A DNA stretch of 14,528 nt from a virus, in UHGV virus genome UHGV-0197628; one strand, given 5' to 3'. Both the position numbers and the translations under genes were made by a program. Positions 1-14,528 of this stretch are shown here, in pieces. The first letter of the stretch is position 1. The number at the start of each line of letters is the position of its first letter. Below the pieces are notes generated by a model. It did no database searches, was not told where the DNA came from, and saw nothing but the letters and a program-made list of their open reading frames with translations.

Positions 1-1
1 G

Positions 2-946
2 GGTATCACCACGCTTCAGCCGCGCATTAAAAACGGTTCAAAAGTGGAGGTGCTGATTGGTGATGAGCTGGTGATCACCGGCTGGGTGGAGGCTACGCCC
101 GTTCGTTACGATGCCCGGTCGGTCAGCACCGGTATTGCCGGACGCAGTCTAACCGCTGACCTGATTGATTGTGCAGCCGAACCGACACAGTTTAACGGAC
201 GATCACTGGTACAGATTGCGCAGGCGCTTGCTGCGCCCTTCGGCATTGAGGTGGTGAACAGCGGTGCGCCGTCGGGTGTTATTCCTGATGTCCAGCCTGA
301 TCACGGTGAAACGGTGATCGAGGTGATTAACAAAATACTCGGTCAGCAGCAGGCGCTGGCTTATGACGACCCGCACGGCAGGCTGGTGATTGGCGGTATT
401 GGCTCAACGCGGGCACATACCGCGCTGGTACTCGGGGAAAACATCCTTTCCTGCGATACGGAGAAGAGTATCCGGGAGCGGTTTTCTGTTTACCAGGTGG
501 CGGGGCAGCGTGCCGGAAACGACGATGATTTCGGTGAGGCCACCACCACCGCGCTGCGGGCCCGCACAGAGGACGCATTTATTGCCCGTTACCGTCCGAT
601 GTATATCAGGCAGACAGGGCAGGCCACGGGGGCAGGCTGTATTGCGCGTGCTGACTTTGAAGCCCGGCAACGGGCGGCGCGGACGGATGAAACCATCTAT
701 GTGGTGCAGGGCTGGCGACAGGGTAACGGTACGCTGTGGCAGCCCAACCAGCGGGTGATTGTCTTTGATCCGGTCTGTGGTTTCGACAATACCGAACTGC
801 TTGTATCGGAAGTCACGTTTACTCAGGGCCAGAACGGTACCCTGACGGAAATCCGTGTCGGCCCGCCTGATGCTTATCTGCCTGAACCCGAAGATCCCGG
901 CGCGCGGAAAAAGAAAAAAGCCAGAGTACAGGAGGACCCGTTCTGA
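2..946 (+). CDS. Phage baseplate/tail protein, Mu gp44 (P) / late-control-D-like; 5' end lies outside the window
   Basis: Reading frame is open from nt 2 (no in-frame stop before the first Met at 44) to the TGA at 944-946, so the gene starts upstream of the window. Its stop overlaps the next start (TGATG at 944-948), indicating translational coupling. It sits first in a co-oriented gp44-gp45-gp46-gp47-gp48-like series. Family assignment rests on gene order and size, not a search. Confidence 0.55.
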   Translation, partial: GITTLQPRIKNGSKVEVLIGDELVITGWVEATPVRYDARSVSTGIAGRSLTADLIDCAAEPTQFNGRSLVQIAQALAAPFGIEVVNSGAPSGVIPDVQPDHGETVIEVINKILGQQQALAYDDPHGRLVIGGIGSTRAHTALVLGENILSCDTEKSIRERFSVYQVAGQRAGNDDDFGEATTTALRARTEDAFIARYRPMYIRQTGQATGAGCIARADFEARQRAARTDETIYVVQGWRQGNGTLWQPNQRVIVFDPVCGFDNTELLVSEVTFTQGQNGTLTEIRVGPPDAYLPEPEDPGARKKKKARVQEDPF

Positions 947-1494
947 TGAGGGCGATTGAAACCATACAGCGACAACTCCTCGGGCTGATTGGGCGGGCCG
1001 TGGTGAAAAGCATCAGTGCCGCCACGAAATGTCAGACCGTGGATGTGTCCCTGATTGCCGGTGAACCCAAAGCCGGGGTTGAACATCTTGAACCTTACGG
1101 TTTTACCGCAAGGGCAAACAGCGGTGCGGAAGCGGTGGTGTTGTTTCCGGATGGTGACCGTTCTCATGCGGTGGTTGTTACGGTGTCGGACCGGCGTTAC
1201 CGCCTGAAAGGGCTGCAGACGGGTGAGGTGGCTGTCTATGACGATCAGGGGCAGTCCGTGACGCTGACCCGGGAGGGGATCGTGGTGGACGGTGCAGGTA
1301 AAACGATCACGTTTCGCAATGCACCTGAAGCACGTTTTGAAATGGATCTGGAAGTGACCGGACAGGTGAAAGACCTGTGCGACTCCGGCGGCACCACCAT
1401 GTCAGCGATGCGGCTTGCCTATAACGGGCATCGTCACAGAGAGAACGGTCAGGGCAGTAACACCGATAAACCTGATAAAGCGATGGAGGCATGA
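946..1494 (+). CDS. Baseplate spike/assembly protein V-like (Mu gp45-like)
   Basis: 182-aa ORF, ATG at 946 overlapping the upstream stop, and its own stop overlapping the next start (ATGATG at 1491-1496). Size and position match the gpV/gp45 slot of Mu-like tail modules. Confidence 0.65.
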   Translation: MRAIETIQRQLLGLIGRAVVKSISAATKCQTVDVSLIAGEPKAGVEHLEPYGFTARANSGAEAVVLFPDGDRSHAVVVTVSDRRYRLKGLQTGEVAVYDDQGQSVTLTREGIVVDGAGKTITFRNAPEARFEMDLEVTGQVKDLCDSGGTTMSAMRLAYNGHRHRENGQGSNTDKPDKAMEA

Positions 1495-1919
1495 TGGAAC
1501 TGTGGCTGACGGTGAACGGTAAACGCACCTGCGCCAGCGCACCGCTGGATCCGCTGACCCGCGCTGTGGTGATTTCCCTGTTCACCTGGCGGCGGGCGGA
1601 GCCTGATGACTATGCCGACGTCCCAATGGGATGGTGGGGGGATACCTGGCCTGCGGTACAGAATGACCGTTACGGCTCCCGACTGTGGCTGCTTCAGCGC
1701 AGCAAACTGACCAATCAGCTGGTGCAGACGGTAAGGGGATATATCCGCGAATGCCTGCAATGGATGATTGATGACGGCGTGGTGTCCCGTATTGATCTGG
1801 ATATCCGCCGCACCGGGATTAATGAGCTGGGTAACAGTATCATCCTCTGGCGTCGTGATGGACCAGTAGTGATTTCTTTTGATGATCTGTGGAGTGCGAT
1901 AACGCATGGCGGACAGTGA
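1491..1919 (+). CDS. Mu gp46-like baseplate protein (gp25/W-like)
   Basis: 142-aa ORF with 4-nt start/stop overlap to the upstream gene and 14-nt overlap with the downstream gene. Size matches Mu gp46 (~140 aa) and it is in the conserved position. Confidence 0.6.
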   Translation: MMELWLTVNGKRTCASAPLDPLTRAVVISLFTWRRAEPDDYADVPMGWWGDTWPAVQNDRYGSRLWLLQRSKLTNQLVQTVRGYIRECLQWMIDDGVVSRIDLDIRRTGINELGNSIILWRRDGPVVISFDDLWSAITHGGQ

Positions 1920-2964
1920 ATTTCAGCGCCCGACGCTGGCAGAAAATATCAGTATGCTCCGTAACGATTTATTCGCCAGGCTGGACGTCAGCGACACGCT
2001 CCGGCGCATGGATGAAGACGTGCGGGCAAAGGTGTATGCGGCGGCGCTGCATACGGTCTACGGTTACATCGATTATCTGGCAATGAATATGCTGCCTGAC
2101 CTGTGCGATGAGTCCTGGCTGGCGCGACATGCTGCGATGAAACGGTGTCCGCGCAAGGGAGCCACGGTTGCCAGCGGGTATATGCGCTGGGAAGGTGTCA
2201 GCGATGGCCTGAAGGTGACTGCCGGGAGTGTTATTCAGCGCAATGACTTGGTGCAGTACACGACAACTGACGATGCAATCAGCTCCGGTGGTGTCCTGCG
2301 TGTGCCGATCGCCTGCTCAAGTGCAGGTGCGGTTGGTAACGCTGACGACGGTACGGCATTAATCCTGGTCACGCCGGTGAATGGTCTGCCGTCTTCCGGC
2401 GTGGCTGACACCCTGACAGGCGGATTTGATACTGAAGAGCTGGAAACGTGGCGCGCCCGCGTCATTGAGCGGTATTACTGGACGCCGCAGGGCGGGGCTG
2501 ACGGGGACTATGTCGTCTGGGCTAAAGAAGTACCTGGCATTACCCGCGCATGGACATACCGACACTGGATGGGAACGGGGACTGTCGGTGTGATGATTGC
2601 CAGCAGTGACCTGATTAATCCCATTCCGGAAGAATCAACGGAAACGGCAGCAAGACAACATATCGGGCCACTGGCCCCGGTGGCAGGCTCTGATTTGTAT
2701 GTATTCAGGCCGGTGGCACATACGGTGGATTTTCATATCCGCGTGACGCCGGACACACCAGAAATACGGGCTGCCATCACCGCCGAGTTGCGTTCGTTCC
2801 TGCTGCGTGATGGTTATCCGCAGGGAGAACTGAAGGTATCGCGTATCAGTGAGGCGATTTCCGGTGCGAACGGGGAATACAGCCATCAATTGCTTGCACC
2901 GGCGGACAATATCTCCATTGCAAAAAATGAACTGGCGGTTCTGGGGACGATTTCATGGACGTGA
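1906..2964 (+). CDS. Baseplate J-like protein (Mu gp47 / P2 gpJ family)
   Basis: 352-aa ORF in the conserved position between the gp46-like and gp48-like genes, overlapping the downstream gene by 10 nt. Size is typical of baseplate J proteins. Confidence 0.7.
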
Positions 2965-3539
2965 CAAACGATGATTACATCCGTCTGTTGTCGGCACTGC
3001 TGCCGCCCGGTCCGGCGTGGTCAGCCAGCGATCCGGCGATTGCCGGTGCGGCACCGTCATTAACTCGTGTTCATCAGCGTGCGGATGCCCTGATGCGGGA
3101 GCTGGATCCGCGCACCACCACCGAACTGATAAATCGCTGGGAGCGTCTGTGCGGCCTGCCGGATGAATGTATTCCCGCAGGGACACAGACCCTTCGCCAG
3201 CGTCAGCAACGGCTGGATGCGAAGGTTAACCTGGCGGGTGGCATCAACGAGGATTTTTATCTTGCACAGCTTGCTGCCCTGGGCAGACCAGATGCCGCCA
3301 TCACGCGATACGACAAAAGCACGTTCACCTGCTCATCGGCCTGTACTGACGCTGTGAATGCGCCGGAATGGCGGTATTACTGGCAGGTCAACATGCCAGC
3401 CGCCACCAACACCACCTGGATGACATGTGGCGATCCCTGTGATTCCGCACTGCGTATCTGGGGGGACACCGTTGTCGAGTGCGTGCTTAACAAACTCTGC
3501 CCGTCGCATACCTACGTAATTTTTAAATATCCGGAGTAA
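2955..3539 (+). CDS. Mu gp48-like tail protein (P2 gpI-like / YmfQ-like)
   Basis: 194-aa ORF immediately upstream of the tail-fibre gene, with a 3-nt gap to it. Size and position match Mu gp48 and e14 YmfQ. Confidence 0.6.
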
Positions 3540-3542
3540 TCC

Positions 3543-4208
3543 ATGCATCGTATAGACACGAAAACCGCGCAGAAGGATAAGTTCGGCGCGGGTAAGAACG
3601 GTTTTACCCGTGGTAACCCCCAGACCGGCACGCCTGCCACCGATCTGGATGATGACTACTTTGATATGTTGCAGGAAGAACTCTGCAGCGTGGTGGAGGC
3701 ATCCGGTGCCAGTCTGGAGAAGGCGCGGCACGACCAGCTGCTTACCGCGCTTCGTGCGCTGCTGTTAAGCCGCAAGAATCCGTTTGGCGATATCAAATCG
3801 GATGGCACGGTGAAAACGGCTCTCGAAAACCTTGGTTTGGGAGAAGCGGCAAAACGGGATGTGGGTAACGGGCAAAACCAAATTCCTGATATGTCAGCGT
3901 GGGAGTGTGGGGGAGATACAACGACGGGATGGAGGCGAAGCCCGGATGGTTATATTGAACAATGGGGGCTAACTGGGGCCACAACAAATGAAGTTTTGAT
4001 TAATTTTCCTATCCCATTTCCGACAGCCGTCATTTCTATTAATGAACATGACCAGGCTCCTGTGGCAGGGAAAATGTCAGTATGGCAATTCTATAAATTG
4101 ACTAACTCAAATGTCATAGCAGAGAACCTGGGATCTCTTGATAAAGGAAATCCATCCTTCAATGTTCCAACTGTCGCTGGTTGCCGCTGGTTTGCTACAG
4201 GAAGATAA
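3543..4208 (+). CDS. Side tail fibre protein (Stf / Mu S-like); constant N-terminus (to ~nt 3833) fused to the currently expressed variable C-terminus inside the invertible segment
   Basis: 221-aa ORF. The N-terminus ([26 protein letters not shown]...) is, from memory, characteristic of e14 StfP-type fibre proteins. The 26-bp inversion crossover site lies in the ALENLGLGE codons (nt 3820-3845). Sequence downstream of the site is visibly more AT-rich and unrelated to the constant part. Confidence 0.8.
3820..3845. repeat. Left inversion crossover site (gix/pix/hix-like, 26 bp, central TT)
   Basis: ctctcgaaaaccTTggtttgggagaa resembles the Hin/Gin crossover-site pattern (..GAAAACC NN GGTTT..). 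Its reverse complement matches the right site at 5659-5684 over 15 contiguous bp (cttctcccaaaccaa), with partial similarity beyond. Confidence 0.75.
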
Positions 4209-4209
4209 A

Positions 4210-4650
4210 ATGAGTAAATATCTTTACGATGCTAAAACTAATATGTTTTACCCATTTACTCTGGAAAGTCAGTATAAGGAGTCTGGGTTATGGCCTCATA
4301 ATGGAGTTGAAGTTGATGAGGATATATTTATTAAGTACCTGTCCCCACCTCCAGGGAAGGTGAGAGTTGCGGGTGATGATGGCTATCCTGCATGGGATGA
4401 CGTACCGCCGCTAACTCATGAAGAACAACTGTCAGAAGCGGAACGAAAAAAACAGGCACTCATAAATCGAGTTAATGAATATATTAACAGTAAGCAGTGG
4501 CCAGGAAAGGCTGCTATTGGTCGTCTGAAAGGTGAGGAACTGGCGCAATATAATTTATGGCTGGATTATCTGGACGCACTGGAACTGGTCGATACTTCCA
4601 GTGCTCCAGATATTGAATGGCCTACGCCTCCGGCAGTTCAGGCCAGATGA
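4210..4650 (+). CDS. Tail fibre assembly chaperone (Tfa / Mu U-like)
   Basis: ATG at 4210 lies 1 nt after the stf stop (TAA 4206-4208), with an AGGAAG Shine-Dalgarno-like sequence about 8 nt upstream. C-terminus ...GRLKGEELAQYNLWLDYLDALELVDTSSAPDIEWPTPP is the conserved Tfa tail. The longer ORF from 4138 starts inside stf and was not used. Confidence 0.75.
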   Translation: MSKYLYDAKTNMFYPFTLESQYKESGLWPHNGVEVDEDIFIKYLSPPPGKVRVAGDDGYPAWDDVPPLTHEEQLSEAERKKQALINRVNEYINSKQWPGKAAIGRLKGEELAQYNLWLDYLDALELVDTSSAPDIEWPTPPAVQAR

Positions 4651-5215
4651 CATCCGGCGCGGTGCTGGTATCTGTTGCCGCCACCGCGTCAATGTAATCC
4701 AGCACAGCGTTAAGCCGGGTTGTTTCTGCCTGCGTCAGTTTCCGCCCGGCCTGTAATTTCAGCTGAATCAGACTAATGGAAGCCATTGCTGCATCAATCA
4801 GTGACTGGCGCTGTGCTTCTGCCGCTTCTACTGCGGCACCGTGTTGTGCCTCAGTATCTGTCACCCATTTCTCACCATCCCATTTATCATATGGCGTTAA
4901 CGGTGAAAGCGTGACATAACCGTTTTTGATGGCACCGATATAATCCACTGTAACAGCAGCACCATTTTCGATTGAGTAAACAGTCTCATTGCGATGGTCT
5001 TCTTCATGGCACCATCCCTTACCTGTAAATACTGCCACTTTTCCCGGAATGTTTTCGCCCGGGTCAATACCAGTGGAACAGGCGGGCATACTTACGCCAG
5101 TATTAATATATTCATCAGACCAGCCCGTATACTCAGATGTTTCAGCATCATAATAAAAACAACGCATATCGCCCGGCACTGTAGCCAGCCCATTTTCATC
5201 AAAAACAGGTTTCAT
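4622..5215 (-). CDS. Tail fibre assembly chaperone, alternative copy (Tfa' / Mu U'-like)
   Basis: 197-aa minus-strand ORF ending in the same conserved Tfa C-terminal motif (...LDYIDAVAATDTSTAPDVIWPELPEA). It is convergent with tfa, with the 3' ends overlapping by 29 nt, and sits immediately downstream (minus-strand sense) of the alternative fibre cassette. Confidence 0.8.
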   Translation of the reverse strand: MKPVFDENGLATVPGDMRCFYYDAETSEYTGWSDEYINTGVSMPACSTGIDPGENIPGKVAVFTGKGWCHEEDHRNETVYSIENGAAVTVDYIGAIKNGYVTLSPLTPYDKWDGEKWVTDTEAQHGAAVEAAEAQRQSLIDAAMASISLIQLKLQAGRKLTQAETTRLNAVLDYIDAVAATDTSTAPDVIWPELPEA

Positions 5216-5682
5216 TATTTAGCCCTCACCAGAAAGTTAAATGCAATATTTCGCGGTCTGACAGCAACAAAATTCACACCATCACCCACAGAGCTACTGG
5301 TGAAATTAAATCGTGAAAATCCTGGCTGATTTCCGGCGATGCCATCATGAAAGTTAATTGCGTGTCCCGCACCTTCGCCTATATTCCCGGCAAACTGAGA
5401 AAAGTTTGTAGCTTCCTGCCAGCTTAATAATTCGCGACCACCATCTGCACCTCGCCCGTCATCCCAGATACGAATGAAATCACCGCGGGCTTCAGGTAAT
5501 ACCAGCGAAGGAAACACTTTCGCCAGCACAGGGTAATTAGAGGCAGAAAATTTCGCCCCGTTGAACTTCAAAAACACCATACCGGACCAGCTGTCGATTA
5601 CAGTATTTGGCATTGCCGCGGAGGGCCAGAAGAACGGAACGCCAATAGCTGGAGCACCTTCTCCCAAACCAACATTTATGAA
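5215..5682 (-). CDS. Alternative tail-fibre variable C-terminal cassette (S'-like), silent in this orientation
   Basis: Minus-strand frame is open from the right crossover site and encodes ...NVGLGEGAPAIG..., i.e. the same L-G-L-G-E junction residues as the expressed fibre. It has no credible start or RBS of its own; the track's Met at 5712 lies in the pin upstream region. Its stop abuts the tfa' start. Confidence 0.7.
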   Translation of the reverse strand, partial: FINVGLGEGAPAIGVPFFWPSAAMPNTVIDSWSGMVFLKFNGAKFSASNYPVLAKVFPSLVLPEARGDFIRIWDDGRGADGGRELLSWQEATNFSQFAGNIGEGAGHAINFHDGIAGNQPGFSRFNFTSSSVGDGVNFVAVRPRNIAFNFLVRAK

Positions 5683-5684
5683 AA
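5659..5684. repeat. Right inversion crossover site (26 bp, central AA; inverted relative to the left site)
   Basis: ttctcccaaaccAAcatttatgaaaa. The first 14 bp are the exact reverse complement of the inner half of the left site. It lies 55 bp upstream of the invertase start codon, as in Gin/Pin/Hin systems. Confidence 0.7.
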
Positions 5685-5738
5685 TGCAGAAATAACGAGC
5701 AAATGGCATCATTCCTGCTTTTGCTAGGGAGATCTACC

Positions 5739-6293
5739 ATGCTTATTGGCTATGTACGTGTGTCAACAAATGACCAGAACACAGATCTACAACGTAATGC
5801 GCTGAACTGTGCAGGATGCGAGCTGATTTTTGAAGACAAGATAAGCGGTACAAAGTCCGAAAGGCCGGGACTGAAAAAACTGCTCAGGACATTATCGGCA
5901 GGTGACACTCTGGTTGTCTGGAAGCTGGATCGGCTGGGGCGCAGTATGCGGCATCTGGTCATTCTGGTTGAGGAGTTGCGCGAACGTGGCGTTAATTTTC
6001 GCAGCCTGACGGATGCTATTGATACCAGTACCCCAATGGGGCGCTTTTTCTTTCATGTGATGGGGGCCCTGGCTGAAATGGAACGAGAACTGATTGTTGA
6101 ACGAACAAAAGCTGGACTGGAAGCTGCTCGCGCACAGGGACGAATTGGTGGACGTCGTCCCAAACTTACACAAGAACAATGGGCGCAGGCCGGGCGATTA
6201 ATTGCATCAGGCGTTCCTCGCCAGAAGGTGGCGATCATCTATGATGTTGGTATATCGACACTGTATAAGAAGTTTCCGGTCGGAGATAAATGA
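5739..6293 (+). CDS. pin: Serine DNA invertase, Pin/Gin/Hin/Cin family
   Basis: 184-aa product from ATG 5739 (MLIGYVRVSTNDQNTDLQRNALN...). It has the N-terminal catalytic-serine motif (YVRVSTNDQ) and a C-terminal helix-turn-helix region (...GRRPKLT..QKVAIIYDVGISTLYKKF), and is near-identical in character to E. coli PinE as I recall it. The 12 extra N-terminal codons in the ORF track (from 5703) were rejected. Confidence 0.9.
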   Translation: MLIGYVRVSTNDQNTDLQRNALNCAGCELIFEDKISGTKSERPGLKKLLRTLSAGDTLVVWKLDRLGRSMRHLVILVEELRERGVNFRSLTDAIDTSTPMGRFFFHVMGALAEMERELIVERTKAGLEAARAQGRIGGRRPKLTQEQWAQAGRLIASGVPRQKVAIIYDVGISTLYKKFPVGDK

Positions 6294-6334
6294 AACCGTA
6301 GCACGTCGTATGCAAGAAGATCGTGCTGCGGTTT
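6293..6334. terminator. Bidirectional terminator-like hairpin between convergent pin and the GIY-YIG gene (repeat copy A)
   Basis: 13-bp stem (aaaccgtagcacg / cgtgctgcggttt, one G-U pair) with a 16-nt loop. It starts at the last base of the pin stop codon and ends 20 nt beyond the stop of the minus-strand gene. Flanks are moderately T-rich on both strands. Confidence 0.55.
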
Positions 6335-6353
6335 ATGCTTATCACTTAAAGAC

Positions 6354-7223
<870 letters not shown>

Positions 7224-7312
7224 CTAATCCTTTGAATTTACATAGTAAAAAAAGATACTTTTCCTCATAGTGTGAGCTAATTTTATGTTTCGTTTGATGA
7301 TCGGACCGGTCT

Positions 7313-7352
7313 CAAAAACCGCAGGCACGTTGTATGCAAGAACGTGCTGTGG
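7313..7352 (-). terminator. Rho-independent terminator-like hairpin on the minus strand (repeat copy B), downstream of the FRG-motif gene
   Basis: Stem ccgcaggcacg / cgtgctgtgg (about 10 bp with one bulge) and loop ttgtatgcaagaa. On the minus strand it is followed by a UUUUUG run (plus-strand aaaaa at 7314-7318). Stem and loop are closely related to hairpin A (shared gtatgcaagaa loop). Confidence 0.5.
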
Positions 7353-7658
7353 CTGGCTGGTGAACTTCCAATAGTGCGAATATTGAATTATTTCCAGCTG
7401 TTATCGATTTTACGTATTTTTTGCATGAGAGGATTTCCACCACCTCCCACCGACCATCTATGGCTGTACGGCCCTATCTCTAGGGCTGCTATGTGCTAAA
7501 AGCAGACATTGATAACATTGAGATATGTTAATTTATAGGTAGCGGGTCAAGGCCACTGAAGATTCCAGTTTTTGACCCTGAGCCTGAAACCGTCCCCGAT
7601 GAGCAGTTCCACCTGAAGACTGCACAGTCTTAGTTTTCTTTGCCATTAATTTATCCAT

Positions 7659-8993
7659 TTATGATATCGATATATACTTTTTTGCAATTTCCGCTGCCGT
7701 TTTCTCCATGCTGGGATATACAGTGCTTTCGGAGATATTAAGCTGGGCCAGCTCTTTCAGAATTTTATTTTTGTTTGCTATCTCCACTCTGTTAAGAGGA
7801 AAATCAGCATCTGTTTCCGGTAAAATAGGATCAAGTCCGAACAGAAGAAATGCGCCTGCCTGAGACTGTATGCGTTCATTATTTATTTTAGCTTTAAGGA
7901 AAACAACTTTTTTTAAGTCATCAGAGATTATTTTGTTTCTGAAATATGATTTTTCATTCTGTATAAGGTCTGCAAGTTTATCAGTGAGTTCAGATAGCTC
8001 TACAGTATCTTTTCTGACATCAATGGAAGACAATTTTTCCAGCTCTTCGTAAGATAAAACTGATAAGTTTGCTATGCAGCTTACTGTATCTGAATCAAAA
8101 TATTTAATTTTCTTTCTGTTTGTTGAGAACGAAATCACCTGCCCATTTTCATTATGGTTCGAACTGCAAGCAAAATATAATGCTATCAGTGGGTTAGATG
8201 TGATATCCAGGAGTCTCGTAGGTAAGCCATAATGCTGCATGCGGACAAGTTTATCAATCGTAAATTTATCCTCCTTAAATTCATTTGGTCTTGCACTGAG
8301 TATCTCACGTACTAAGTCAGATTCTGAAGCAAGATGCCTGTATGTCCCGTTTTCATTCTTTCTGTAAAGAGAGGGGACAAGCTCATATGAGCTTTTAGAG
8401 TGTCCACGATAAAAGGTAACGAGGCCATCCGGACTGTTTTTTTTAATAAAGGCAAGATAATCCATGACATTCTCAACCACCTGATATGTTTGTTTTTTTA
8501 ATTTGATTGTACCTTTCAGACGGTTGTTTTTCTTGTTTAAACTAAGTCCTTTCAGAACAATATTTAAATCCTTATCTTTTACTGCCCAGTGTGTACGACT
8601 TAACCCGAAAGTTCCTAGTTCTAGGATTTCTTTATATAATGCTGTTTGGGGATTTGTTATTTCTCCAAAATCATGGTTAATCTTGAAGGAAAATAAAATG
8701 TCGTCACCATCTTTACGTAAATTTCTTATTTTCCCAAGCCTGATTCTGATGTACCTGTTTTTATCATTTTCAGTATCTTTCATATAAGTTTCGGTCATGA
8801 ACAACACAGGTAGCATGGCGAGTAATTTTAAGCTATCGGGTCTTACAGGTATTAATTTACTGTAAATATCGCTTGGGGTGCCTTCCAGCATGCGGGACAT
8901 CGAGAAGCTTTCCTCGCCTTCTTTAAGCCCAGGATTCATACACGGCCAGCGGTCAAAAACGTCCGGTTCTCCGGCCATGATTAAGTTAAACAT
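7659..8993 (-). CDS. FRG-motif protein (Abi-like), uncharacterised N-terminal ~170 aa plus central FRG-type domain (candidate defence gene)
   Basis: 444-aa product from ATG 8991-8993, with AGGAG 6 nt upstream on the minus strand; the track's start is the adjacent GTG. Contains F-Y-R-G-H followed by ...RMQHYGLPTRLLDITSNPLIALYFAC, which I recognise as the FRG-domain signature. The gene is AT-rich. Confidence 0.7.
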   Translation of the reverse strand: MFNLIMAGEPDVFDRWPCMNPGLKEGEESFSMSRMLEGTPSDIYSKLIPVRPDSLKLLAMLPVLFMTETYMKDTENDKNRYIRIRLGKIRNLRKDGDDILFSFKINHDFGEITNPQTALYKEILELGTFGLSRTHWAVKDKDLNIVLKGLSLNKKNNRLKGTIKLKKQTYQVVENVMDYLAFIKKNSPDGLVTFYRGHSKSSYELVPSLYRKNENGTYRHLASESDLVREILSARPNEFKEDKFTIDKLVRMQHYGLPTRLLDITSNPLIALYFACSSNHNENGQVISFSTNRKKIKYFDSDTVSCIANLSVLSYEELEKLSSIDVRKDTVELSELTDKLADLIQNEKSYFRNKIISDDLKKVVFLKAKINNERIQSQAGAFLLFGLDPILPETDADFPLNRVEIANKNKILKELAQLNISESTVYPSMEKTAAEIAKKYISIS

Positions 8994-9505
8994 CACAATC
9001 TCCTGAATTTACTCACTAAAGTCAGTGTGTTTTTATTATGTTGCATCATTGTGAATGAGGATGGCATGAGTTGTCCATGCTTGTTTGTCTTTCATAATTC
9101 ACAAAGTACATCAGCTTCTAATGTGTTTACGGTACGACCATGTGGGCGATGTCTTTCCATTCCTGAAAACTTCCTACTCAACCATGATGTATAAGCTGTA
9201 GTATGAAGTTTCTTGCCATCCAGTTAAGTAAATGTCTGCTCCTCGCTCACAACAGACATTCACTACAGTTGTGGCAGAAAGGTATGCATACTGGGTGGGG
9301 AAAGTGTGAAAGAAAGGAAGAATACTGCGCCGTTTGTCGTCGCGTTTATCTTCATTGGCTATGCAAGTCGTAATACAAGGTGGGACAAAACTGAGACACA
9401 TAAGGCCTCACAATGGCTTGCAAGGCTTTACATGTTTTGATGTGGTGGGACGTGTGAGCGCAGTGTTGATGGGGTAATGCTTTGAATTAGAAGCGGATTC
9501 TTATA

Positions 9506-9551
9506 ATTCGTAATGCGAAGGTCGTAGGTTCGACTCCTATTATCGGCACCA
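9506..9551 (+). tRNA. Partial tRNA-Thr(CGU) gene, 3' 46 nt only (anticodon loop to CCA); att-site direct-repeat remnant, not a functional tRNA
   Basis: attcgtaatgcgaaggtcgtaggttcgactcctattatcggcacca matches the 3' portion of enterobacterial tRNA-Thr(CGU) (thrW) as I recall it, including anticodon CGT, T-arm GGTTCGACTCC and the CCA end. The 30 nt upstream do not encode the 5' acceptor/D arm, so the tRNA is truncated. Confidence 0.75.
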
Positions 9552-9663
9552 TCTCAACTTCCTCAAACGTCCGTATTAGTCCTTAAATCTTCTGATTTAT
9601 AAGGTTTTTTCTTCTTTTAAGTCCATGGTAGTCCGTAACCATCCAGTAGAATCCGGTACTGAA

Positions 9664-9714
9664 TGTGTATAGGATTGTGTATATGTTCCTGTTCGGTCTG
9701 GATTCCTATACACA
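9664..9714 (+). promoter_or_regulatory. Perfect 11-bp inverted repeat (tgtgtatagga ...29 bp... tcctatacaca) spanning the integrase translation start
   Basis: The arms at 9664-9674 and 9704-9714 are exact reverse complements. The right arm ends at the A of the preferred int ATG (9714) and the left arm begins inside the alternative upstream ATG (9663). A partial third copy (ttgtgtatatg) lies at 9675-9685. Confidence 0.4.
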
Positions 9715-10901
9715 TGCCTTTAAACGATATGCAGATTCGCCGCGCTAAACCTGAAGCTAAAGCCTATACACTTGGAGATGGGCAAGGGCTGTCTTTGCTT
9801 ATAGAACCTAATGGAAGCAAGAGCTGGCGGTTCCGCTATCGTTTTGCCGGTAAACCAAAAATGATCTCGCTTGGTGTTTATCCAACAATAACACTTGCCG
9901 ATGCGCGTTCCCGTCGTGACGATGCCCGAAAACTGGTCGCGGAAGGAAAAAATCCGAGCGAGGTTAGAAAAGAGCAGAAAATTGCTTTGCAAACGGAGTC
10001 CGAGAGCGCGTTTGAAAAGATAGCCACAGAGTGGCACCAAATGAAGTCTGCTAAATGGTCGGAAGGATATGCCTCAGACATCATGGAAGCGTTTCAGAAC
10101 GATATTTTTCCTTACGTGGGTACAAGACCAATAGGCGAAATCAAACCGCTAGAACTGCTTAACGTGCTACGTAAAATTGAAAGGCGCGGTGCATTAGAAA
10201 AAATGCGCAAAGTTCGGCAGCGATGTTCAGAGGTTTTTCGCTACGCCATTGCTACAGGAAGGGCTGAGTTTAACCCAGCAGCGGATCTTTCTAGTGCCCT
10301 CGATGTACACCAATCAAATCACTTCCCGTTCCTAAAAGCTGATGAGATACCCGATTTTCTGCGCGCTTTGGATGGTTACACCGGAAGTCGGCTTGTCCTG
10401 ATTGCTACGAAATTACTGATGATTACTGGTGTAAGAACCATCGAATTACGTGCGGCATTATGGTCAGAATTTGATCTAGATAACGCTATTTGGGAAATTC
10501 CAGCAGAAAGGATGAAAATGCGTAGGGCACACCTTGTGCCACTATCTACTCAAGCGTTAGATTTACTCAGCGAAATCAAAATAATGACAGGGAACTATAG
10601 TTATGTTTTTCCGGGACGGAATGATCCGAACAAGCCGATGAGTGAAGCAAGTGTCAATCAGGTAATCAAACGCATTGGTTATAAAAGTAGGGTCACTGGG
10701 CATGGTTTTAGGCACATGATGTCAACTATCTTACATGAGCATGGGTTTGATTCCCGGTGGATAGAGTTACAGCTGGCTCATGTTGATAAAAATACCATTC
10801 GAGGTACTTATAATCATGCGGTCTATCGTCACGAGAGAGCTACTATGATGCAGTATTTTGCTGATTTGCTATTAGGAAAGTCTCATGACAATAATCAATG
10901 A
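9714..10901 (+). CDS. int: Tyrosine site-specific integrase, P4 / CP4-57 family
   Basis: 395-aa product (MPLNDMQIRRAKPEAKAYTLGDGQGLSLLIEPNGSKSWRFRYRF...). It has the N-terminal arm-binding region typical of P4-type integrases and C-terminal catalytic residues in context (...HLVPLS..., HGFRHMMSTILHEHG, LAHVD...RGTYNHAVY). It sits directly downstream of a tRNA 3' fragment. Confidence 0.9.
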   Translation: MPLNDMQIRRAKPEAKAYTLGDGQGLSLLIEPNGSKSWRFRYRFAGKPKMISLGVYPTITLADARSRRDDARKLVAEGKNPSEVRKEQKIALQTESESAFEKIATEWHQMKSAKWSEGYASDIMEAFQNDIFPYVGTRPIGEIKPLELLNVLRKIERRGALEKMRKVRQRCSEVFRYAIATGRAEFNPAADLSSALDVHQSNHFPFLKADEIPDFLRALDGYTGSRLVLIATKLLMITGVRTIELRAALWSEFDLDNAIWEIPAERMKMRRAHLVPLSTQALDLLSEIKIMTGNYSYVFPGRNDPNKPMSEASVNQVIKRIGYKSRVTGHGFRHMMSTILHEHGFDSRWIELQLAHVDKNTIRGTYNHAVYRHERATMMQYFADLLLGKSHDNNQ

Positions 10902-11811
10902 GGTGAATAAATTTGTATCTGTCAACAAGCAAGATTTTGATGCTTGTATTGATGTTGTTGAGCATTTCTTTTGTATCAAATCGCTCTGTGCAGAGGTACG
11001 ATTTCATCATTTGAAGTTTGATGGTAATGGACGACCTATGGTGAAGGCGTTAGCTGAAAAACTTTACGAGTATATAATCGAGTACTGTTTTTCGATGCAA
11101 GATAGATGTGAACCTCTCTCATCTCAACAATGGCTTGCCTTAGCGAAACAGGCTCGTTCATTGTTTAGGCATCCCAAAGTCACAGACGATTCGCCTGATA
11201 AAACAGGCGAGGCTGGCGAAACTTTATTATTTTTCCTTTTGGAAGCTATAATTGGTGCTCCACAGTTAGTGGCAAAAATGGAGCTTAAAACCAACTCGAA
11301 TGATGAGGTAAAAGGTTCTGACGGCATACATATAAAATGGAATGAAACGGATAAAGTTGTTGATTTCTACTTTGGTGAGTCAAAGCTCTATCAGAAAATA
11401 TCCTCTGCAATGGACTCAGCACTTAAAAGTATCGATGATTTCCATACTAATGAAATGTATAAGCATGAGTTTGGTATGGCAACAAAACATTATAAATACG
11501 CTAAGGATGAAGTCAGGGACGCTGTAAGGAAACTATTCGTTTCTGGAGAACCCGGTTCTGATGTTCGTGTTAATCATGCGTGTTTAATTGGTTTTGACTG
11601 GAATGGTTTTGACAAGTTAGATTATGGATCTTCGATTTCTATAAATGAGCAGTTTATTACAGAGTTGACTAACACACTTCCGCAATGGATTGGTCTGTTA
11701 GATGAAAAATTCAGTAGGTTTAACCGTAAATATTTAAGGTTTGATGTTTTCTTTATTCCATTTCCTTCGGTAGTCGATTTTAGAAATGAATTTAACAAGG
11801 CATTAAATTAA
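10885..11811 (+). CDS. PD-(D/E)xK-like nuclease candidate; HamA-like (Hachiman effector) by architecture
   Basis: 308-aa ORF with AGGAAAG 5 nt upstream of its ATG, overlapping the int 3' end by 17 nt. Candidate catalytic triad spacing: E120 (FLLEAIIG), D146 (GSDGIHI), E165-x-K167 (FYFGESKLY). It is followed 2 nt later by a large SF2 helicase gene. Strongly AT-rich. DUF1837 membership could not be verified without an HMM search. Confidence 0.6.
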   Translation: MTIINEVNKFVSVNKQDFDACIDVVEHFFCIKSLCAEVRFHHLKFDGNGRPMVKALAEKLYEYIIEYCFSMQDRCEPLSSQQWLALAKQARSLFRHPKVTDDSPDKTGEAGETLLFFLLEAIIGAPQLVAKMELKTNSNDEVKGSDGIHIKWNETDKVVDFYFGESKLYQKISSAMDSALKSIDDFHTNEMYKHEFGMATKHYKYAKDEVRDAVRKLFVSGEPGSDVRVNHACLIGFDWNGFDKLDYGSSISINEQFITELTNTLPQWIGLLDEKFSRFNRKYLRFDVFFIPFPSVVDFRNEFNKALN

Positions 11812-11813
11812 CT

Positions 11814-14345
11814 ATGTTAAAGATAAATGAGTTGTACTCTAAACTTGTCAAGGTTAGCATTGATAACATATTTGGAGTGGTAGGGGAGTTAAAGGTAAGT
11901 ATTAGTGATATTTATAAGTTATTATCATATGGCTCCATACTGTCTTTGTCAGAGAATGAATCTGACATAAAAAAAGCCTACGACATTGTCAGTAGAGTTT
12001 TAGAATTAGATACTCAGTACGATTCGAACATAATTGCAGCTTGTGATCTTATTTTATCTAGAATCGGAAATTTTCCAGGTAGAGGGTTGCTAAGAGATAA
12101 ATATAATAATGGAGAGTCTCCTTCGCTGAATTTATCACTTTCGCTAGAACGTATTGGGCGTGAAACAGAAAATACATACAATGATATAACTTTGACAAAC
12201 TTCCAATGCAAGTTGCTTAATTCGCTAAGAAAGAATAATTATCTCAGTGTGTCCGCCCCAACGTCTGCTGGAAAATCTTTTGTTCTTTCATTAGCTGTTA
12301 TTGATAAAATTCAAGCTTATGAAAAAGAATGCATTGTTTATGTAGTACCAACTCGTGCGTTAATTAGTGAGGTGTCAAATAAATTTCGTTATGAGTGTAA
12401 ACAAGCAGGGTTAAATAAAGTTATTATAAGAACTGCACCAGAAATAATAGAGAGTAATAGTATAGAACAAGGCTTAATTTATGTGCTCACACAAGAAAGG
12501 CTTGTTAGTTTACTCTCGAATTCTTATGGGAATAGCAATTTCCATATAGATACATTACTCATAGATGAAGCCCATGAAATCCAAAAAGGAAAAAGAGGTA
12601 TAATTCTTCAAAATGCTGTTGAATTAGCTCTTGAAAAACATCCTCATATGCATGTTATGTTTTCCAGCCCTTTGATAAGTAATCCTGATTATTTTTTTTC
12701 AATTTTTAGATGGCGCAAGGATGGTAAGTCATTTATTGAAACTATATCACCTGTTACACAGAATGTTTTACTTGTTAATCAAGTGAAAAATAACACTCAA
12801 GCTATTAACGTAAAGTTAAACAATGAAGATAAACCCATTGATCTTGGGAATTATAATTTAGATTTTGTGTTGCGGGGCAATCGTAAGGTTCAGAAAGCAA
12901 AAATTGCTGAGTTTATATCTCGCTCCGGTGGTGCTGTAATTGTATTTGAAGATACACCGTCTAATGCAGAAGGTGTTGCTATCAATATAGCGGAAAGTAT
13001 TGGTGATACATCTTTACAAGATGATTACGAAGAGTTTGTGTCTTCGATTGAAGAAGAAATGCATGAGCAATATACTTTGATCACATGCTTACGGTCAGGA
13101 GTGGCTTTTCATTATGGGAATATGCCATCTATAATAAGAAATGGGATTGAGTACTTCTTTAAACGTGGCGATATTAAGTTTATAGTTTGTACTAGTACAT
13201 TACTTCAGGGTGTTAACTTACCTGCAAAGCATCTTATTTTAGAGAATCCACACAGTGGTGATGAACCAATGTCAAGGGCTGATTTCTTGAACCTTGCTGG
13301 TAGAGCTGGCCGTTTGAAATATGAGTTTCATGGCAATGTTTGGTGTGTGAGAAGTAATCTTTGGGATAACAAGTCCTTTGAAGGTGATACTCTCCAAACT
13401 ATAACTTCCGCGATGTCAAAAGTTATGGAAGATGGCGGTAGCATCATTTCAAATGCTATTGATAATGTATTTTCCCCAACTGATGACAAGGAATTGGCAG
13501 ACGTTGCATTCGCGCGTTTTTATCAAGAAGTGCAAAGAGATGGTTTTCAATTATCATACTTCTCTGAGTTAGAGGGGGAGGAGTCCAATGAAATGTTGGA
13601 ATATAATTATGATAAAGTTCGACGAATGAAGATAACCATCCCTGAAGAACTGTTGAAATTGAACTCAGGCACGAGACCTGATTACATACAACGACTTTAT
13701 GAATTCTTCACCCAACAGGATGATTTAGATGATTACATTCTGCATAGCCCTTATCAACAAGGAGGGAAAGCAAGAGTAGACCGCGCCATCGAGATTATTA
13801 TTGATATATTCGCTTGGCCGGTTACATTGCAATATGCAAAGTTAATTAGTGTTATGGCTCATCATTGGATGACCTCTCACTCCCTTAAATCCATGATTAA
13901 CTATAAGATTAGAAGTTCTCATGAACTATCAGATATGATTAATCGTGGTGAATCAATTGGTAAAATAAGAAGAAAAACATCCTCTCTTATTAGGGATGTG
14001 CTAAATACACTTGAGAATCAAGTTAGGTATAATTTAGTTCGATATTTAAAAGTATATAGAGAAACTCTTGTCTATGTTCTTATTTCAAAAGGAGAAAAAG
14101 GTAAGGCTGAGAAGGTCGAGAATATTAGTGCCTATCTAGAGTTTGGTTCCTGTAATCCAACTGAATTAAGCCTTATGTCATTAGGCCTTTCTCGAAGTAC
14201 TGCTTTATTTTTAAAAAATAAATTTAATTTCCCGCGGGATTCCTCCCCTGAAGCGTTGATTGAATTTTTATTAACGAAAGATTTGAATTCTAAAAACACA
14301 CCAGAATTTAGAGTTAGAGAAATTAAAGATGTACTTGGAATTTAA
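11814..14345 (+). CDS. Superfamily-2 DEAH-box helicase with ~340-aa uncharacterised C-terminal region; HamB-like (Hachiman helicase) by architecture
   Basis: 843-aa ORF. Walker A is SAPTSAGKS (K154, nt ~12255-12278), motif II is LLIDEAHE (nt ~12561-12575), motif V-like is TSTLLQGVNLP and motif VI is LAGRAGRL (aa ~493-500). The start is 2 nt after the upstream stop. Strongly AT-rich. Confidence 0.7.
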   Translation: MLKINELYSKLVKVSIDNIFGVVGELKVSISDIYKLLSYGSILSLSENESDIKKAYDIVSRVLELDTQYDSNIIAACDLILSRIGNFPGRGLLRDKYNNGESPSLNLSLSLERIGRETENTYNDITLTNFQCKLLNSLRKNNYLSVSAPTSAGKSFVLSLAVIDKIQAYEKECIVYVVPTRALISEVSNKFRYECKQAGLNKVIIRTAPEIIESNSIEQGLIYVLTQERLVSLLSNSYGNSNFHIDTLLIDEAHEIQKGKRGIILQNAVELALEKHPHMHVMFSSPLISNPDYFFSIFRWRKDGKSFIETISPVTQNVLLVNQVKNNTQAINVKLNNEDKPIDLGNYNLDFVLRGNRKVQKAKIAEFISRSGGAVIVFEDTPSNAEGVAINIAESIGDTSLQDDYEEFVSSIEEEMHEQYTLITCLRSGVAFHYGNMPSIIRNGIEYFFKRGDIKFIVCTSTLLQGVNLPAKHLILENPHSGDEPMSRADFLNLAGRAGRLKYEFHGNVWCVRSNLWDNKSFEGDTLQTITSAMSKVMEDGGSIISNAIDNVFSPTDDKELADVAFARFYQEVQRDGFQLSYFSELEGEESNEMLEYNYDKVRRMKITIPEELLKLNSGTRPDYIQRLYEFFTQQDDLDDYILHSPYQQGGKARVDRAIEIIIDIFAWPVTLQYAKLISVMAHHWMTSHSLKSMINYKIRSSHELSDMINRGESIGKIRRKTSSLIRDVLNTLENQVRYNLVRYLKVYRETLVYVLISKGEKGKAEKVENISAYLEFGSCNPTELSLMSLGLSRSTALFLKNKFNFPRDSSPEALIEFLLTKDLNSKNTPEFRVREIKDVLGI

Positions 14346-14528
14346 TATTTTATCGCAATTATTTTGATGCCAATATAAATAATCATTCTCAATGGCGAAT
14401 TGCTAAAGGAAAGTTCATACGATGACCGCGCGCAATGCTCTCCCCGCCACGCCTGCCCGCTTTGTAGGGCAGTTTTCATGCAGGTGCATGAACCGGCTCA
14501 GGCCGCGCCGGTACTGGCGTGGTGGGGA

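Follow-up and report, generated by a model that had tools for sequence, protein, structure and literature searches.

The stretch of DNA analysed here, which we call the window, is 14,528 nucleotides of the virus genome UHGV-0197628 and carries on its minus strand a gene for a 444-residue protein with an FRG domain. It is a real, horizontally moving prophage gene that very probably protects its bacterium from other phages. The gene, its product and the DNA that moves with it are laid out as follows.

7659..8993, minus strand: complete coding sequence, 444 amino acids (aa) and a TAA stop, from the open reading frame (ORF) list and translation; sensor-like N-terminal domain, linker and FRG module
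9000..9004, minus strand: ribosome-binding site AGGAG, read in the sequence, 6 nt 5' of the ATG
8544..8993, minus strand: N-terminal domain, aa 1-150, unnamed family with a predicted PUA-like fold, from a structure model and conserved signatures
8502..8543, minus strand: linker, roughly aa 151-164, variable and of low confidence, from low predicted local distance difference test (pLDDT) scores and gap-rich alignment columns of variable length
7671..8501, minus strand: FRG module, aa ~165-441, predicted ADP-ribosyltransferase (ART)-like fold, from PADLOC PDC-S15 coverage and the predicted fold
8148..8417, minus strand: Pfam FRG segment (PF08867), aa 193-282, with FYRGH and QHYGLPTRLLD...ALYFA, from hmmscan
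7488..9257, no strand: mobile cassette, the gene plus flanks of ~170 bp (downstream) and ~260 bp (upstream), from blastn

The longest form of the ORF runs over 7659..8996 on the minus strand, with a GTG at 8996 and an ATG at 8993. Because 45 of the 45 aligned homologues begin MFNLI, we take the ATG as the start; the TAA stop is at 7661-7659. The first-pass annotation had described a 444-residue AT-rich gene with an AGGAG ribosome-binding site and the signature F-Y-R-G-H ... QHYGLPTRLLD ... ALYFA. Both descriptions hold, and to them we add the minus strand, which had been left unstated. All three motifs are found in the translation, FYRGH at aa 194-198, QHYGLPTRLLD at 253-263 and ALYFA at 271-275, and the GC content of segments spanning 7501-9000 is 0.35-0.38, compared with 0.54-0.60 for the tail genes at 1-3750. 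Promoter and terminator scans produced matches at or below shuffled expectation. The protein matches phrog_4962 (function unknown) over its full length with E=6.4e-88, so the complete architecture of N-terminal domain and FRG module circulates in phages.

FRG is the sole Pfam domain in the protein. A profile search had been proposed as a check on the family, and the protein passes the PF08867 profile with E=1.7e-22 and 80.5 bits (cut-off 25), aa 193-282 aligning with profile positions 3-92 of 94. Fourteen models of the PADLOC candidate single-gene family PDC-S15 also match, the best of them, PDLC04936, with E=1.2e-98 over aa 165-441 against positions 15-297 of 300. The profiles of this family are 254-535 positions long, and the best-matching ones, of ~286-300 positions, cover aa ~165-441. 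As PDC-S15 spans aa 165-441, the C-terminal ~150 aa are no separate domain but the second half of one FRG module of ~280 aa, of which the Pfam profile models only the first third. This assignment, made from profile coverage, is new here; the status of FRG and PDC-S15 as a candidate family was already known, and the fold of the effector had been predicted earlier. The protein is a direct member of both Pfam FRG and PDC-S15, with single-gene organisation and neighbours that vary between contexts, but PDC-S15 is a candidate system only and the models of both families omit the N-terminal 160 aa. The first reading found no nameable motif in the N-terminal ~170 and C-terminal ~150 aa. That stands for Pfam and NCBIfam, where searches with aa 1-170 and 290-444 (E up to 10 and 1) returned only noise; it does not stand otherwise, as the C-terminal part belongs to the FRG module and the N-terminal part is a widespread, recognisable domain.

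Among 46 full-length sequences (identity down to 43%) the invariant residues cluster in the FRG module. Near the start of the domain is the (F/Y)RG motif, F194-Y195-R196-G197-H198, in which R196, G197 and H198 are invariant, followed by S208, E224 and E230. The central block is D247-K-L-V-R-M-Q-H254, G256, P258-T-R-L261, D263 and N267-P-L, and towards the end are E347-K348, N372, R374, Q378, G380 and F385-G386, those from N372 onwards forming the conserved C-terminal motifs N372-x-R374, S-Q378-x-G380 and F385-G386. R196/H198, S208, E347 and Q378, invariant among close homologues, are candidate catalytic residues.

The Aravind group placed FRG in the ART superfamily as a predicted antiviral effector that "might" be an NADase (PMC9503650). 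The AlphaFold2 model of the full-length protein has a mean pLDDT of 75.8 and a confident N-domain. The best ART-fold matches of the FRG module are diphtheria toxin, exotoxin A, TreX and Tpt1/KptA, which acts on RNA, and the NAD+-phosphorylase RES toxins also appear among its fold matches. Compared with the ART toxins (diphtheria toxin, exotoxin A, the RES toxins MbcT/ParT, Tpt1 and PARPs), the protein has no significant sequence similarity to solved chains, and a full-length profile found no match among all PDB chain sequences. The FRG module also differs from them in a helical insert of ~60 aa, at about aa 301-361, and in having the invariant S-Q-x-G in place of an obvious catalytic Glu.

The N-domain is predicted to adopt a PUA-like beta-barrel fold. 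Modelled separately, aa 1-170 gave a pLDDT of 86.6 and a predicted template modelling score (pTM) of 0.82, with pLDDT below 50 at aa 156-166, and the fold matches include the PUA-like readers THYN1, VcaM4I, McrB-N and YTH. Its signatures are S-R34-x-L-E37-x-T39, P62, E68, G87 and R133-T-H-W136-A-V-K139; across 27 diverse members R34, T39, E68 and R133-T-H-W136 are invariant, and E37, P62 and G87 nearly so. For a putative pocket that would take a modified base or nucleotide, the conservation pattern offers R34, E37, T39, E68, R133, T134, H135 and W136. A profile of aa 1-165, built from 20 homologues and searched against 1.84 billion cluster representatives, found 740 proteins at E<=1e-3, of which 142 reach E<=1e-10, ranging from ~130 to 1061 aa in length. 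PADLOC matched neither the N-domain nor the stand-alone N-domain proteins. Pfam scans of 82 of the 740 representatives identified these partner domains.

CAP12/Pycsar-type TIR: 20/82
FRG: 17/82
Abi_C (AbiJ-type HEPN): 7/82
TIR_2: 5/82
protein kinase: 4/82
TIR: 3/82
KAP NTPase, PNP_UDP_1 nucleosidase, guanylate cyclase, Schlafen AlbA_2 and DncV-like NTase: 1/82 each
SEFIR, EAD2, FGE-sulfatase and AbiJ_NTD3: 1/82 each

In PADLOC the partners are labelled as PDC-S35, CBASS/Pycsar TIR effectors, PD-T4-6-type kinases, AbiJ, a CBASS purine-nucleosidase effector and QatA/PifA-like NTPases. Each partner identified is an effector of the suicide or dormancy type. In every multi-domain protein inspected the N-domain immediately precedes the effector, including those with the orders NTase, N-domain, FRG (P0198), AbiJ_NTD3, N-domain, TIR (P0196) and EAD2, N-domain, kinase, FGE (P0224). 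None of the 19 Pfam families listed for these 82 proteins is a DNase, which fits allosteric sensing better than a domain that targets DNA as in restriction. The N-domain is recognised here for the first time as a module of its own, widespread and of predicted PUA-like fold, which Pfam, NCBIfam and PADLOC all lack and which is found on TIR, HEPN, kinase and other effectors as well as on FRG. Its role is probably that of an infection sensor.

The gene moves between prophages. By blastn against the lambdoid locus of LF82/Tritos and the pinE-prophage loci, 7488-9105 matches at 90% and 9092-9257 at 85%, so that no fewer than two unrelated prophage backbones carry the cassette, with nucleotide identities of 85-90%. 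In strain L004, which lacks the FRG gene, homology to the window breaks between 7515 and 9235. The first-pass annotation had called the gene a horizontally acquired moron, and an AT-rich cassette shared at this level of identity by differing prophage backbones bears it out. The two copies of a perfect inverted repeat of 10 bp, AGCAGACATT (7501-7510) and AATGTCTGCT (9231-9240), lie near the cassette ends, precisely at the breaks in homology to L004. They belong to a pair of 25-nt arms with 76% complementarity, and could be the scar of a recombination event or have arisen by chance.

In the assembly collection the exact protein occurs in 49 blocks. Its contexts were read on 24 contigs, and in all six of the places shown it adjoins the restriction gene CMoRE at the end of a Mu-tail/Pin prophage. 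Some of these loci border chromosomal DNA, the yagP-paoABCD region; the others border a P4-like satellite with Hachiman, DRT3 or an unknown gene in the slot next to its integrase. Alleles with 88-90% identity are present in 496 of 5426 complete E. coli genomes (~9%). Some lie alone between replication genes and hokD in the lambdoid prophage of LF82, which is phage Tritos, and others at the same Pin-prophage end with Septu PtuA/PtuB in place of CMoRE; one further strain has CMoRE and no FRG gene. The P2 gpA-gpQ region, a published defence hotspot (PMC9122126), holds a 47% homologue with 231 member sequences next to a type VI retron, and a 50% homologue lies between tail genes of a Klebsiella prophage. 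Membership of PDC-S15 and the position of the 47% homologue both support the phage-defence role that had been thought plausible for this gene.

A pattern scan of one genome per species confirmed 441 loci in 185,579 species (~0.24%), mostly Proteobacteria, over which the loci are scattered, many with no obvious prophage. We surveyed the nearest upstream and downstream ORFs at 76 species loci. The 142 neighbouring proteins matched 130 Pfam families, none of them more than three times, and were a mixture of integrases, transposases, DNA methylases, SWI2/SNF2 and HNH proteins, LmuB and ordinary genes. There is thus no conserved partner gene among these flanking ORFs and no housekeeping operon, which the first reading had named as the arrangement that would count against a defence factor.

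Two groups of relatives have neighbours of their own. In a clade of ~47%-identical homologues (L010, L012, L064, L081) a 267-aa ORF ends 14 nt upstream of the FRG gene and a 148-aa ORF lies 3' of it on the same strand (1511-2314 and 3836-4282 in L010), and the three genes are possibly a clade-specific operon. The 267-aa protein looks helical-repeat-like and not like a phosphatase. In the Klebsiella prophage (L224-L228) a protein of 439-465 aa with no Pfam match is encoded within the tail module, between gpU-like tail genes and the FRG homologue, and may be another moron or defence candidate.

The explanation we prefer, at slightly less than even confidence, is that the protein is a single-polypeptide abortive-infection sensor-effector that combines a PUA-like nucleotide sensor with an NAD+-consuming FRG module. 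The N-terminal ~150 aa would bind a nucleotide-derived cue of infection. This could be a modified base within DNA or RNA, or else a modified mononucleotide of the sort set free as a phage degrades host DNA. Binding would switch on the FRG module (aa ~165-441), an enzyme of predicted ART fold that would most likely hydrolyse NAD+, leaving an infected cell that could no longer support phage replication. The analysis shows directly the gene, its domain boundaries and families, its movement between prophages, its defence-rich surroundings and the reuse of the N-domain ahead of many immune effectors. We infer the role of the sensor from fold and architecture and that of the effector from fold and from the literature that places FRG in the ART superfamily; the kind of ligand, the consumption of NAD+ and an abortive end to infection are likewise proposals.

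A similar arrangement is known from Metis, or PUA-Cal-HAD, described in preprints of late 2025 and early 2026. There a PUA-like sensor binds N6-methyl-deoxyadenosine monophosphate (m6dAMP) and activates a fused calcineurin-like enzyme, which aborts infection by cleaving NAD+ according to the Metis preprint and by depleting deoxynucleoside triphosphates (dNTPs) according to the PUA-Cal-HAD preprint; a HAD phosphatase removes the basal ligand. The PUA-like family of Metis is also fused to HEPN, DrHyd, TIR, HNH and McrB, and fusions other than those to Calcineurin-CE mostly lack a HAD partner. Like Metis (MisA/MisB), the FRG protein has a predicted PUA-like domain followed by a predicted NAD+-using enzyme, and like the published Metis family its N-domain is fused elsewhere to TIR, HEPN and other effectors. 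However, the motifs VWWGWW(xKxxExxP) and TPxYY are missing from its N-domain, its effector is FRG/ART-like and not a calcineurin-like metallophosphatase, and no adjacent gene for a HAD-type phosphatase (MisB) was found next to the exact protein or among the neighbour families listed. As, in addition, the N-domain does not match PF24405, the Metis sensor family, and profile alignment with that family is not significant, we rejected membership of Metis. The resemblance between the [KR]xxE and RTxW motifs of the two sensor families is a lead only.

For the profile alignment, MisA/PUA-Cal-like sequences were recovered from viral contigs by back-translating VWWGWW, and alignments of 4 and 34 sequences were used in hhalign. 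Four of these contigs from IMG/VR (L182, L153, L206, L223) encode proteins of 537-548 aa with the VWWGWW, TPxYY and metallophosphatase motifs, which means that Metis-type sensors are also phage-borne. The last conserved strand of the MisA-like proteins, D-x-T-[LI]-W, is the sole segment that aligns with the RTHW strand of our N-domain.

The protein can also be compared with other sensor-effector systems. Like the type IV modification-dependent restriction enzymes with PUA-like readers (EVE-HNH VcaM4I and the McrB N-domains) it appears to join a reader-type domain and an effector in one polypeptide; unlike them it has no nuclease domain detectable by Pfam or PADLOC, and no nuclease is among the N-domain partners listed. 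The same N-domain precedes the Abi_C/AbiJ HEPN and CAP12-type TIR domains, which links the protein to AbiJ-type HEPN effectors and single-protein TIR effectors (PDC-S35, CAP12/Pycsar-type TIR). A sensor N-terminal domain joined to a suicide effector was the model proposed for AbiJ (PMC3710099), and our N-domain matches it. Unlike the N-terminal domains of AbiJ, however, it falls outside the Pfam AbiJ NTD families and occurs as a separate domain beside AbiJ_NTD3 in P0196, and the effector differs.

Several results weigh against a nucleotide sensor joined to an NAD+-consuming enzyme. The best-conserved FRG motif, KLVRMQHYGLPTR (aa 245-258), is modelled at a pLDDT below 50, Foldseek matches of the predicted structures are below significance, and a canonical H-Y-E or R-S-E catalytic triad could not be mapped in the FRG module. 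The N-domain has no Pfam match at E up to 10 (EVE, ASCH, YTH, PUA and PF24405 included), its profile found no solved chain in the PDB beyond a spurious match to a designed TPR repeat, and it contains one invariant tryptophan and no obvious aromatic cage. Aligned by hhalign with the PF24405 family (4 and 34 sequences), the N-domain family gave E=0.1 and 0.16 over 13 columns, and only the RT[H/I/L]W strand was aligned. A MisB/HAD-like partner that would clear basal ligand is absent beside the exact protein and from the neighbour families listed. The defence-type neighbours are a plain tally, and experiments on any FRG protein, including anti-phage work on PDC-S15 and FRG, were not found in the searchable literature.

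In a different reading, the FRG module does not just use up NAD+ but is a genuine ADP-ribosyltransferase with a macromolecule as its target. In its most specific form, the PUA-like domain would bind modified phage DNA or RNA and the FRG module would ADP-ribosylate that nucleic acid, as DarT or Tpt1 does, or a phage or host protein. The best fold matches of the FRG module are indeed transferases, the PUA-like readers matched by the N-domain bind bases inside nucleic acids, and the literature says only that FRG "might" be an NADase. Against this, the N-domain is swapped among TIR, HEPN, kinase, nucleosidase and KAP NTPase effectors that have no common substrate, which argues for a generic switch and not a substrate-binding module. 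Nor was any nuclease or other DNA-directed partner seen, and the RES toxins among the fold matches are NAD+ phosphorylases. We think a macromolecular transferase unlikely. It is equally unlikely, in our judgement, that the gene is defensive but that its N-domain senses a phage protein, in the manner of many Abi and Avs sensors and of Lon N-domains, whose substrates are proteins, or serves only to oligomerise the protein.

A role outside defence seems highly improbable. The protein could be a counter-defence or lysogenic-conversion factor, for example an enzyme directed at immune signals based on ADP-ribose (ADPr), or a toxin stabilising the prophage by addiction. Carriers of the gene or its relatives include the temperate phages Tritos, P2-like phage P2_2H1 and PhiR11_1, and ART-superfamily and ADPr-processing enzymes are also found on the viral side of such conflicts (PMC9503650). 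However, the gene fills slots that elsewhere hold validated defence systems, the domains joined to its N-domain are suicide effectors well known from host immunity, the 142 flanking ORFs include no conserved antitoxin-like partner, and the scatter of the gene over Proteobacteria includes many loci with no obvious prophage.

The preferred explanation, a nucleotide sensor controlling an NAD+-consuming FRG module, can be taken further, though in this form it is tentative and we would sooner doubt it than rely on it. The N-domain would be a new family of PUA-like immune sensors, apart from the PF24405 family of Metis, that senses danger through a nucleotide-derived signal, for example a hypermodified base of the phage or a modified mononucleotide left by the degradation of DNA. 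It would have been shuffled onto at least eight classes of effector: FRG, three types of TIR, HEPN, Ser/Thr kinases, PNP nucleosidase, KAP NTPase and nucleotide cyclases. The protein described here would then be the first NAD+-consuming effector of FRG/ART fold to be gated by a ligand, and would do its work in a single polypeptide with no ligand-clearing phosphatase.

The window corresponds to the right-hand end of a prophage that has a baseplate of the Mu type and an invertible tail-fibre segment under the control of a Pin/Gin invertase. Past the invertase the order is CMoRE/PD-T4-3, the FRG gene, a P4-type integrase and Hachiman hamA/hamB.

3832-5672: invertible segment of tail-fibre and tail-fibre-assembly genes, in the opposite orientation in scaffold L090
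5739-6293: invertase, Pin/Gin-type
6354-7127, minus strand: CMoRE/PD-T4-3 (PADLOC E=2.7e-140), ~480 bp from the FRG gene
from 9714: P4-type integrase with Arm-DNA-bind_3, Phage_int_M and Phage_integrase domains and a 17-nt overlap with hamA
10885-11811: Hachiman hamA, after the integrase
11814-14345: Hachiman hamB, after hamA

CMoRE/PD-T4-3 is a GIY-YIG type IV restriction endonuclease specific for 5-hydroxymethylcytosine (5hmC) and its glucosylated form (5ghmC) (PMC12923530; PMC12366544), and CMoRE acts by direct cleavage of DNA with no abortive infection (PMC12923530). It is bracketed by an 18-nt direct repeat, GCACGT[C/T]GTATGCAAGAA, at 6301-6318 and 7325-7342, as if it too were an exchangeable cassette. 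The slot beside a P4-satellite integrase is the psu-int defence hotspot (PMC9122126); in sister contigs it holds DRT3, Gabija or an unknown 274-aa gene, followed by the Psu, Delta and primase genes. The window thus has a P4-satellite defence hotspot integrated directly beside the prophage end. Scaffold L090 is otherwise 99.97-100% identical to the window over 1-14404, with 15-bp overlaps at 3832-3846 and 5658-5672 marking the crossover sites of the inverted tail-fibre segment. A reversed segment in so close a relative points to a Pin/Gin-type inversion switch that operates actively in the population.

FRG proteins have been flagged as defence candidates with no known trigger, demonstrated activity or published phenotype. 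This locus turns one such anonymous candidate into a concrete sensor-effector hypothesis, with moderate support at the level of fold, and offers a compact, self-contained and naturally mobile 1.8-kb test case with a putative promoter region of its own. If the N-domain is a nucleotide sensor, the FRG effector and the sensor module of hundreds of TIR, HEPN and kinase proteins would be characterised together, and the result would bear on whether the sensing of danger nucleotides, as described for Metis in 2025-26, arose more than once.

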